64,000 bases of DNA from a virus, in the IMG/VR virus record IMGVR_UViG_3300023179_000020. The stretch is one strand, 5' to 3'. Each line of letters starts with the position of its first letter. The first letter of the stretch is position 1. The notes under the pieces are model-generated. The model had not been told where the DNA came from, did not search any database, and was given only the letters and a program-made list of their open reading frames with translations. The position numbers and the translations under genes are program-made. Below, in pieces: positions 826-54,753 of the stretch.

Positions 826-904
826 GACCGATTCATAGCCGGTCGCTCTAAACAGAGACAAAAATATGGTAGCTGTGGCACTCCTAAAAAGGTGCCACTT
901 TTTT
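826..904 (+). ncRNA. Candidate structured RNA (H-type pseudoknot) overlapping an intrinsic terminator
   Basis: GACCG(826-830)/CGGTC(840-844) stem; loop TCATAGC(833-839) complementary to GCTGTGG(872-878); CTCT/AGAG hairpin; GC-rich island in an AT-rich intergenic region. Confidence 0.45.
875..904 (+). terminator. Rho-independent terminator
   Basis: GTGGCAC...GTGCCAC stem followed by T-run. Confidence 0.75.
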
Positions 905-2894: not shown

Positions 2895-3152
2895 ATGGAA
2901 GAAGAAAAAAAGTATCAACTAGACCCAACACTAGAAACTAAAAAGTACACATCAACAGACGGTACAATTCGTTACATGAAAGATGGAAAATTACACAACT
3001 GGGATGGTCCAGCCGTAATCCACCCAGATGGTAAAGAAGAGTATTTTATTAATGGTTTTCAACATGACAAAGATAGTCATCATAAAGCAAAACGTGATGG
3101 AATTGGGTTACCTTGGTTTAAGAGTAGTGTAGGTAAAGGATCACGATCTTAG
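2895..3152 (+). CDS. Hypothetical protein with GKLHxxDGPA repeat-type motif
   Basis: DGKLHNWDGPAVIHPDGKEEYFING; start moved to ATG 2895. Confidence 0.6.
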   Translation: MEEEKKYQLDPTLETKKYTSTDGTIRYMKDGKLHNWDGPAVIHPDGKEEYFINGFQHDKDSHHKAKRDGIGLPWFKSSVGKGSRS

Positions 3153-3203
3153 TTTTTTTTTGATATTTATAATAAAATATACTAATTTAAAAAATAAAAG
3201 ACA

Positions 3204-3683: not shown

Positions 3684-3701
3684 AAAACAGTATTTTAAAT
3701 T

Positions 3702-3727
3702 AGGCTTGGGAAACCAGGCCTTTTTTA
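3702..3727 (+). terminator. Rho-independent terminator overlapping the promoter of the next gene
   Basis: AGGCTTGG-GAAA-CCAGGCCT plus T-run; CTTG(3705)-N20-TATATT(3729). Confidence 0.7.
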
Positions 3728-3740
3728 TTATATTACTAAT

Positions 3741-4271
3741 ATGAAGATAGGACTATGTGGAACAATGAGTGTTGGCAAATCAACACTAGTACATGCTTTA
3801 AAAGAATTACCTGAATTTAAAGATTATTTCTTTGCTACTGAACGTAGTAAATACTTACGTGATTTAGGTATTCCATTAAACACTGATAGTACATTAAAAG
3901 GTCAAACAATATTCTTAGCTGAACGTTGTTCTGAACTAATGAGAGAAAATGTTATTACTGATAGAACAATTATCGATGTGATGGCTTTTACTCAATGTGC
4001 CAAGTCAATTTGTCAAGATGATAAAAATGCATTTGTTAAATATGCTGCTCCATTTATTTGGGACTATGATTATGTTTTTTATGTGTCTCCTATTGGTGTA
4101 AAAATTGAAGATAATGGTGTTAGAGAAACTAATGCTGATTATCGTGAATTAATTGATTTTACTATAAAAAGCACAATACATGAACATTTAAATCAAATTA
4201 AAAATCTAGCATTCATTTCAGGCACTACTGAAGAAAGAATTAAACAGATTAAAGGTTACTTAGGTTTCTAA
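3741..4271 (+). CDS. P-loop nucleotide kinase (AAA_28/NadR-like or dNMP kinase)
   Basis: Walker A GTMSVGKST, ITDRT motif, EDNGVRE. Confidence 0.75.
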   Translation: MKIGLCGTMSVGKSTLVHALKELPEFKDYFFATERSKYLRDLGIPLNTDSTLKGQTIFLAERCSELMRENVITDRTIIDVMAFTQCAKSICQDDKNAFVKYAAPFIWDYDYVFYVSPIGVKIEDNGVRETNADYRELIDFTIKSTIHEHLNQIKNLAFISGTTEERIKQIKGYLGF

Positions 4272-11882: not shown

Positions 11883-11932
11883 TCCAACGTATTCTTTCAA
11901 AATCTTTGACATATTTATAATAAAATATAGAT

Positions 11933-16096: not shown

Positions 16097-16119
16097 TATA
16101 ACTTAGAATTATAACAATT

Positions 16120-16145
16120 AAGCCCAGAGAAATCTGGGCTTTTTT
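16120..16145 (+). terminator. Terminator after the MCP gene
   Basis: AAGCCCAGA-GAAA-TCTGGGCTT plus T-run. Confidence 0.85.
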
Positions 16146-16177
16146 GTTTTCTTTAATATTTATACACAAATACGACT

Positions 16178-21246: not shown

Positions 21247-21264
21247 TAAAATAAACATAACAAT

Positions 21265-21294
21265 AAGAAGACCCAATTTAGGGTCTTCTGTTTT
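21265..21294 (+). terminator. Rho-independent terminator
   Basis: AGAAGACCC-AATTTA-GGGTCTTCT plus T-rich tail. Confidence 0.75.
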
Positions 21295-21323
21295 CTCTTA
21301 ATATTTATAAACAAACTCTATTC

Positions 21324-32539: not shown

Positions 32540-32599
32540 TTATAAATCTAAATAGAACCAATTTGGTTCTGTAACATATTTATAATAAAAATCTAGCCA

Positions 32600-36556: not shown

Positions 36557-36607
36557 TTTGTACATTCTCCAAGATATTTATAATAAAAATAAAAACACTT
36601 TAACAAA

Positions 36608-38692: not shown

Positions 38693-38736
38693 AAATTTAA
38701 TAAACAGATATTTATAATTAAATAAAACATAATACA

Positions 38737-40724: not shown

Positions 40725-40756
40725 CCCGCAAAAAAATTGCGGGTTTCTTTTTTTTC
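40722..40756 (+). terminator. Rho-independent terminator
   Basis: AACCCGCAA...TTGCGGGTT plus long T-run. Confidence 0.8.
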
Positions 40757-40781
40757 TTTATATTTATAATAAAACATAATT

Positions 40782-52843: not shown

Positions 52844-52874
52844 TTTGGCTTTTTAAAGTTTTTTAGTATATTAG
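52844..52874 (+). promoter_or_regulatory. Putative early/middle promoter of the replication block
   Basis: TTTGG(52844)...TATATT(52867). Confidence 0.55.
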
Positions 52875-52888
52875 TATGAATAAAGGTT

Positions 52889-54617: not shown

Positions 54618-54694
54618 TATTTATAATAGACACAACGGTGTCAATTTAGGTTAGAACAAGTTAAGGAAAACACTACAAGAAAAAGGCAGTATAA

Positions 54695-54726
54695 TTTGGC
54701 CGTATTAAAAAAAAGTAGTATATTAA
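54695..54726 (+). promoter_or_regulatory. Putative early/middle promoter
   Basis: TTTGG(54695)...TATATT(54719). Confidence 0.55.
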
Positions 54727-54753
54727 TAATAACAATTTAAAAACCAACGTTTT

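Follow-up and report, generated by a model that had tools for sequence, protein, structure and literature searches.

We describe a small RNA element, present in more than 110 distinct phage sequences of IMG/VR, which very likely represents a real, strongly selected and phage-specific pseudoknot-terminator RNA of a family outside Rfam. On balance, we favour the view that it acts in cis as a switch of T4-like aquatic phages, a large and uncultured group, in which formation of a pseudoknot competes with that of an intrinsic terminator, and that it is probably an ON riboswitch gating read-through into a flavoprotein gene. The closest cultured relative of this group in the collection searched infects Flavobacterium. 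A first-pass annotation made from the sequence alone had proposed a pseudoknot that is mutually exclusive with a terminator, in the manner of ON riboswitches; the overlap of the two structures in 112 folded copies, together with their computed energies, supports that proposal.

The DNA analysed is a stretch of 64,000 nt (hereafter, the window) from an A+T-rich phage contig, with all of its genes on the + strand. Among the products are a large terminase of T4 type and a portal of gp20 type. The portal shares 62% identity with that of Flavobacterium phage vB_FspM_immuto, the nearest relative in culture that we found, and the host is therefore likely to belong to the Bacteroidota. Searching positions 600-1100 with blastn against 50,697 phage records gave a single irrelevant 59-nt match, that is, no cultured relative by DNA, and neither tRNA nor tmRNA genes were found in the window. 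The RNA element is located in a gap of 211 nt, between an ORF of 216 aa, the transcript of which is the likely source of the RNA that reaches the element, and the gene for a FAD-binding oxidoreductase. The features of this locus, in order along the window, are the following.

79-729, + strand: upstream ORF of 216 aa, without family, containing an internal RMQKLAG-type motif
816-825, + strand: conserved 5' flank UAAACAUAUA, consensus A-N-N-U-N-N-A directly before P1 (alignment A2)
826-844, + strand: P1 hairpin, GACCG (826-830) with CGGUC (840-844), closing the 9-nt loop AUUCAUAGC (read from the sequence)
845-871, + strand: L3, made up of a conserved G (845), an optional P2 hairpin (846-857) and the A-rich linker ACAAAAAUAUGGUA (858-871)
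872-878, + strand: pseudoknot 3' strand GCUGUGG, partner of 833-839 (sequence and covariation)
875-916, + strand: intrinsic terminator with stem 875-882/891-898, an 8-nt loop and a U-rich tract at 899-916 (terminator scan and folding)
906-936, + strand: promoter-like box, TTTG (906-909), 19-nt spacer, TATCTTTA (929-936) (read from the sequence)
941-2248, + strand: predicted regulated gene, a 435-aa FAD-binding oxidoreductase of the COG2509 / VP0956 type (Pfam Rossmann matches, model and Foldseek)

The P1 stem at 826-830/840-844, a loop pairing of 7 bp including two G-U pairs, and a small hairpin and an A-rich linker in between had each been named in the first-pass annotation, and all of them were recovered on re-reading the sequence. 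Within the P1 loop, 831-832 (AU) constitute L1, with both A831 and U832 invariant in the alignment, and 833-839 (UCAUAGC) form the pseudoknot 5' strand, which makes seven pairs with 872-878, the two G-U pairs being at positions 1 and 4. The topology is that of an H-type pseudoknot with AU as L1, no L2 and a long A-rich L3; as L2 is missing, P1 and the pseudoknot helix can stack. P2 consists in the window of CUCU (846-849) and AGAG (854-857) with the loop AAAC. P2-like hairpins occur in 42 of 113 copies, with stems that vary (CUC-GAAA-GAG, CUUC-GCAA-GAAG, CCC-UUAG-GGG), and L3 as a whole measures 20-33 nt across copies and is 47% A. Besides the helices, the single G after P1 (845) is conserved, as are three positions of the 5' flank (A4, T7 and A10, each at 90% or more in alignment A2). 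Pairing of this flank with the linker or with the post-terminator box was considered and dropped, because inspection by eye gave low-complexity A/U matches only. The minimum free energy fold of 730-920, obtained by a method blind to pseudoknots, contains P1, the small hairpin and the terminator.

Homologous copies provide the strongest evidence for the element. A search of IMG/VR with the flavoprotein yielded 537 relatives, and most of the 80 loci kept bear the element just upstream; a scan with the RNA pattern only gave at least 119 loci, with about 75 true copies among the matches listed; and a second protein search, seeded with a 58%-identical flavoprotein, added further, more divergent copies. 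The 113 unique copies referred to here are those passing a structural filter, and extra variants were reached only by covariance model R1. Compensatory changes are seen at all five pairs of P1, with 99.6-100% of cells paired (108, 55 and 71 sequences). RNAalifold, run unaided on 29 homologues, selected the pseudoknot pairing itself as consensus, and pair counts for this helix (again on 108, 55 and 71 sequences) give 99.8-99.9% of cells paired, compared with about 92% for shuffled sequences and 25-52% with the partner displaced by 1-3 columns; the observed covariation score was reached by none of 500 shuffles. The protein-collected samples are unbiased with respect to the RNA sequence, and in these the pseudoknot is 99.7-99.8% paired, with alternative pair types at six of the seven pairs, three of which change on both sides and three more on one side compatibly. 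From pair 1 to pair 7, the types are U-G/U-A/C-G; C-G/U-A; A-U/G-U; U-G/C-G; A-U/U-A; G-C/G-U/U-A/A-U; and C-G/U-G. The first-pass annotation had been prepared to give up its proposal if P1 and the pseudoknot were neither conserved nor covarying in related phages; both are conserved, and both covary.

Individual variants extend this picture to the terminator. In locus L328, the loop (UUGCAUC), the partner (GAUGUAG) and the terminator 3' arm (CUACAUC) have all changed together, and L035 and L080 show a similar three-way change at pseudoknot pair 2, as is expected when both alternative pairings are under selection. Complementarity is complete in L329 (loop CUAUAGC, partner GUUGUAG) and L336 (UCAUUAC, GUAGUGG), the one exception being a U-U mismatch at pseudoknot pair 6 in L049. 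In copies of the window type, the terminator stem does not extend to partner bases 2-3, and these bases covary; there, the loop pairing alone explains the covariation. The allele of the window, UCAUAGC/GCUGUGG, and the commonest variant, UCAUUGC/GUAGUGG, are never mixed, though they are scattered over the flavoprotein tree (a quick tree only), where supported branches force at least four changes of the variant allele. This scatter is more likely to reflect recombination between leader and gene than repeated origin, and we therefore give the linkage of alleles instead of counting compensatory events.

Truncated copies of the element were also encountered (L080:2447-2502; L324:791-845; L274:3950-4005 on the - strand; L034:2329-2391; L048:920-979; L326:436-494). 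Some retain P1 and its loop and lack the partner, and others are cut right after GCUGU and run into a different hairpin. Inserted genes lie next to them, and recombination, or insertion at the element, may have left them behind as scars.

The terminator with which the pseudoknot is proposed to compete is a G+C-rich hairpin at 875-898 that is directly followed by the U-tract UUUUUUGUUU; its stem comprises eight pairs, five of them G-C, and is followed by UUUUUUGUUUGUUUUUU. The overlap of its 5' arm with the pseudoknot partner, already pointed out in the first-pass annotation, is borne out by the terminator scan, which places the stem such that GUGG (875-878) is shared. Folding of 112 copies gave in each case a hairpin that shares 2-7 nt with the partner; three different layouts occur, and the U-tract is poor in some lineages. 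GUGG is the overlap in copies of the window type. In many marine-looking copies, the whole AGCUGUGGC serves as terminator 5' arm and GCCACAGCU as 3' arm, followed by a long U-run. A third layout (e.g., L010) has an outer helix CUAAGG/CCUUAG, AGCUGU as an internal loop and an interrupted U-tract; here, the pseudoknot could form alongside most of the hairpin, so that mutual exclusion would be partial only. For the window, the pseudoknot duplex was computed at about -7.4 kcal/mol, the terminator hairpin at -12.1 and the terminator with GUGG blocked at -2.2. Being more stable than the pseudoknot, the terminator should thus prevail for as long as nothing stabilises its competitor.

Control of read-through into the flavoprotein gene, which had been suggested from the window alone, gains support from the genomic context of the other copies. 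A flavoprotein homologue (at least 57% identical) lies downstream in 112 of the 113 unique copies, the lone exception being at a contig end, although gene order common to related phages inflates the apparent link. The flavoprotein gene follows the element directly in 91 copies. In another 12, it is preceded by a gene of 157-169 aa that overlaps its start and whose DenV-like product scores above the curated cut-off of Pfam Pyr_excise (pyrimidine-dimer DNA glycosylase; E 1.4e-5) and also matches phrog_624, and other copies have GIY-YIG homing endonucleases or other small genes in between. The link holds also for copies found by the RNA pattern alone, and it is constant across differing upstream and downstream neighbours, with at least two downstream arrangements. 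Two traits of riboswitches in general are thereby found in the element: an alternative pairing that overlaps the aptamer (112 folded copies; L328, L035, L080) and a covarying, structured aptamer upstream of a consistent gene set (112 of 113). We consider it likely that the element gates read-through into the flavoprotein operon.

On the upstream side, the genes are mutually unrelated, and for most of the longer ORFs (about 100 aa or more) the distance from the end to P1 is 0-18 nt, commonly 5 nt. No conserved promoter was found before P1, and beyond the 10-nt flank there is only unrelated coding DNA. Given variable genes that run up to the element and nothing conserved further up, transcription most simply arrives from the upstream genes. 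The (R/K)MQK(L/I)AG motif that is internal in the 79-729 ORF of the window forms the C-terminus of upstream ORFs, directly 5' of the element, in L030, L031, L045, L052 and L055. In the marine-looking loci L084, L089, L140, L147, L162, L178 and L184, the gene that comes just before the element codes for a tiny, Cys-rich peptide in which C-x-C motifs recur and which has a CCxC ending; this unannotated peptide looks metallothionein-like.

The element occurs once per genome in those phages for which this can be judged: three complete genomes (160-179 kb) have exactly one copy each, and the window has one. Two incomplete phage genomes contain the flavoprotein gene without the element and have no copy elsewhere. 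A covariance-model search of 151 Flavobacteriales genomes did not find the element, its single 25-bit hit being a false positive without P1 or loop. In the pattern scan of bacterial genome contigs, 118 of 120 were chance matches among the matches listed, and the two real copies, on contigs binned into MAGs and each adjoining a flavoprotein gene, are most simply explained as phage DNA. Sequencing runs shared only a small part of the sequence words (0.10 or less). In relatives, both the motif region and the flavoprotein gene are represented among contigs from RNA libraries, and 848 is connected with 947 by one marine contig; given that DNA carry-over is possible and that the contigs are without RNA ends, we draw no conclusion from them on expression, habitat or read-through, and stretches lacking coverage are uninformative. 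A literature search gave no description of the element, the full-text matches to its motif words being unrelated primers or siRNAs.

What might the regulated protein do? The AlphaFold2 model of the flavoprotein (mean pLDDT 87.6) has as its top Foldseek match 3NLC (VP0956, an uncharacterised FAD protein; E 1.7e-21, TM 0.71), a solved structure without assigned activity, whereas HI0933-type proteins and flavin monooxygenases/halogenases are much weaker structural matches; by sequence, no match was obtained among solved structures, nor with any NCBIfam model at cut-off. Relatives in cultured phages are only about 25% identical and come from Campylobacter Fletchervirus phages and faecal phage contigs (50,697 phage records). 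In the Campylobacter phage NCTC12673, the homologue is situated among replication and nucleotide genes (dUTPase, clamp loader), and this location, together with the DenV-like partner gene, hints at DNA or nucleotide metabolism, which we regard as a lead only. Downstream of the flavoprotein gene lie a conserved gene for a small partner protein of 78-87 aa, which by eye is MORN-like, and one for a P-loop kinase. In L167:2510-4159, the flavoprotein carries a C-terminal fusion to the MORN-like partner, which suggests that the two proteins act together. The AAA_28-type P-loop protein encoded at 3741-4271 of the window, which we take to be NadR-kinase-like, has counterparts 3' of the flavoprotein and partner genes in 75 loci, and PHROGs assigns its family to thymidylate kinase. 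Within the window, a homing-endonuclease gene (2263-2886; NUMOD1/NUMOD3 domains, phrog_314) separates the flavoprotein gene from its usual small partner gene (2895-3152, again MORN-like by eye); with this endonuclease and the GIY-YIG genes of other phages, the locus looks like a hotspot for insertion of mobile genes.

Is the element the sole route by which transcription enters this gene? Between the terminator and the flavoprotein start codon sits the box TTTG, 19 nt, TAnnTTTA, which presumably resembles the Bacteroidota -33/-7 promoter consensus and has equivalents in relatives (TTTGGC...TATATTAA or (C)GTATATTAA). Similar boxes come after other terminators in the window ((T/G)TATATTA class at 3684-3740, 52844-52888 and 54618-54753). 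In addition, a box ATATTTATAA(T)A recurs 15-35 nt before structural genes of the window (e.g., at 3153-3203, 11883-11932, 16097-16177, 21247-21323, 32540-32599, 36557-36607, 38693-38736 and 40725-40781) and is probably the late promoter of the phage group. We infer that 906-936 may function as a promoter, in which case the flavoprotein gene may also be transcribed independently of the switch. In that case, the gene would have its own start site, and the switch would govern only the extra read-through from upstream late genes. The box therefore lowers our confidence in the element as the main control of the gene, while the case for a switch remains.

Known RNA classes do not account for the element. 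In agreement with the first-pass annotation, which could not assign a family, Rfam 15 gave no match at gathering score for the whole window and 13 related loci, and for region 700-960 at E up to 10 returned only four low-scoring matches (E 2.8-7.6) to unrelated families; preQ1, SAM-II/V, fluoride, ZTP, guanidine-III and pistol are among the families unmatched. Mutually exclusive pseudoknot/terminator layouts are known in ON riboswitches, such as those for fluoride (crcB) and ZTP (pfl). In these, as is proposed for our element, an early pseudoknot holds part of the 5' arm of a thermodynamically favoured terminator and its stabilisation leads to read-through. However, the element has no sequence or covariance-model similarity to either class, differs from them in its helices and conserved nucleotides, and is seen only in phage sequences, apart from the two MAG-binned copies; its downstream gene, a COG2509-type flavoprotein, presumably falls outside their gene sets. 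With preQ1-I riboswitches it has in common a P1 of 5 bp, pairing of the loop with sequence 3' of an A-rich strand, and the very small size of the aptamer, but its pseudoknot helix has 7 bp as compared with about 4, its L3 is 20-33 nt long and often contains a hairpin, L2 is missing and there is no Rfam match. Nor are queuosine or 7-deazaguanine genes found downstream, where the genes encode the flavoprotein, the DenV-like glycosylase, the MORN-like protein and the P-loop kinase. A nut-type (boxA/boxB) antiterminator was likewise rejected: CGCUCUAA after P1 of the window is boxA-like, but only G845 of it is conserved across copies. A catalogue of structured-RNA candidates drawn from the same source collection, IMG/VR, contains many that include terminators or lie close to genes, and its main text describes nothing like the element (PMC10690425).

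How might the element control the flavoprotein gene? We envision that RNA polymerase coming from the variable, apparently late upstream genes would transcribe P1 and then the partner GCUGUGG, and that the P1 loop would pair with the latter to form an H-type pseudoknot sequestering 2-7 nt of the terminator 5' arm. The more stable terminator hairpin would subsequently displace the pseudoknot and halt transcription, unless the pseudoknot were stabilised, in which event polymerase would go on to transcribe the COG2509-type flavoprotein gene, along with the DenV-like glycosylase gene in those phages that have one in front of it. The stabiliser would most likely be a small ligand, which would make the element an ON riboswitch. 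From this layout we infer in which direction control runs, that a stabiliser is needed and that it is a small molecule, the last of these being a tentative suggestion to which we give just short of an even chance.

Alternatively, the same architecture may be operated by a macromolecule, with a phage or host RNA-binding protein, or a ribosome terminating on the upstream ORF, stabilising or melting the pseudoknot. Sequence invariance is far greater in the pseudoknot and its flanks than in P1, as would be the case for a sequence-specific binding site, and the near-invariant pseudoknot sequence could reflect recognition by a protein instead of a ligand pocket; the MORN-like partner gene and the P-loop kinase 3' of the flavoprotein gene also speak for this reading. 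Yet Watson-Crick pairs can take the place of both G-U wobbles, so that the sequence of the helix as such is not strictly required, and no candidate binding protein was identified. A terminating ribosome would reach P1 from the upstream stop codons, which lie 0-18 nt (usually about 5 nt) before it, but only A4, U7 and A10 of the upstream flank are conserved, and the stop codon itself is not. We thus regard control by a macromolecule as unlikely.

The element might also do without any sensing, as a tuned leaky terminator that also protects the 3' ends of late transcripts from upstream, and its association with the flavoprotein gene would then reflect no more than a conserved junction of the genome. 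The promoter-like box downstream of the terminator and the terminator-then-promoter punctuation elsewhere in the window would suit such a constitutive role, as would the outer helix of some lineages, which fits a single compact fold. On the other hand, only one terminator per genome of 160-179 kb bears the element, the downstream gene stays constant, in at least two downstream contexts, while the upstream genes vary, and the three-way covariation of loop, partner and terminator arm indicates selection on both pairings. A purely constitutive element therefore seems quite improbable to us.

A stand-alone RNA had been raised as an alternative in the first-pass annotation, and an sRNA of about 80 nt that ends at the terminator and acts in trans would account for the compact structure with its terminal terminator, and for the presence of the motif region in RNA-library contigs (a weak point, as DNA carry-over is possible). 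With upstream ORFs ending 0-18 nt before P1, no conserved promoter, unrelated coding DNA upstream of the 10-nt flank and a strict linkage in position and orientation to one gene, such an RNA is disfavoured and indeed very improbable. A pistol-like self-cleaving ribozyme, finally, in which an outer and an inner helix flank an internal loop that pairs with the loop of a hairpin, is scarcely credible: CCUUAG-type copies (e.g., L010) do present P1, linker, outer helix, pseudoknot strand and inner hairpin in an order that we take to resemble pistol, but there is no match to the Rfam pistol model even at E up to 10, the outer helix is unconserved, with neither the window nor most copies having it, cleavage would have to take place at a 3' junction that is likewise unconserved (A, UU or nothing), and a U-run terminator follows.

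What would a riboswitch of this kind mean for the phages that carry it? To our knowledge, phage-borne riboswitches are rare, and the known ones are copies of bacterial classes. It is conceivable, although we give it somewhat less than an even chance, that the element represents the first phage-only riboswitch class, with an H-type pseudoknot aptamer of about 55 nt serving as a metabolite sensor that reports on the infected cell, such that late transcription would enter the enzyme gene only when the metabolite is present. The sensed metabolite would perhaps be the substrate of the COG2509 flavoenzyme, or else a product of DNA damage or nucleotide metabolism, in keeping with the DenV-like partner gene. 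Whatever its trigger, the element is a well-defined orphan candidate that combines strong selection and a clear switch layout with no match to any described family, and its small size would make it attractive as a genetic switch. If it is indeed a metabolite riboswitch, its ligand would assign a function to the COG2509 enzyme family, and the sensed compound, once identified, could uncover a new step in the metabolism or DNA repair of phages that are abundant in aquatic habitats.
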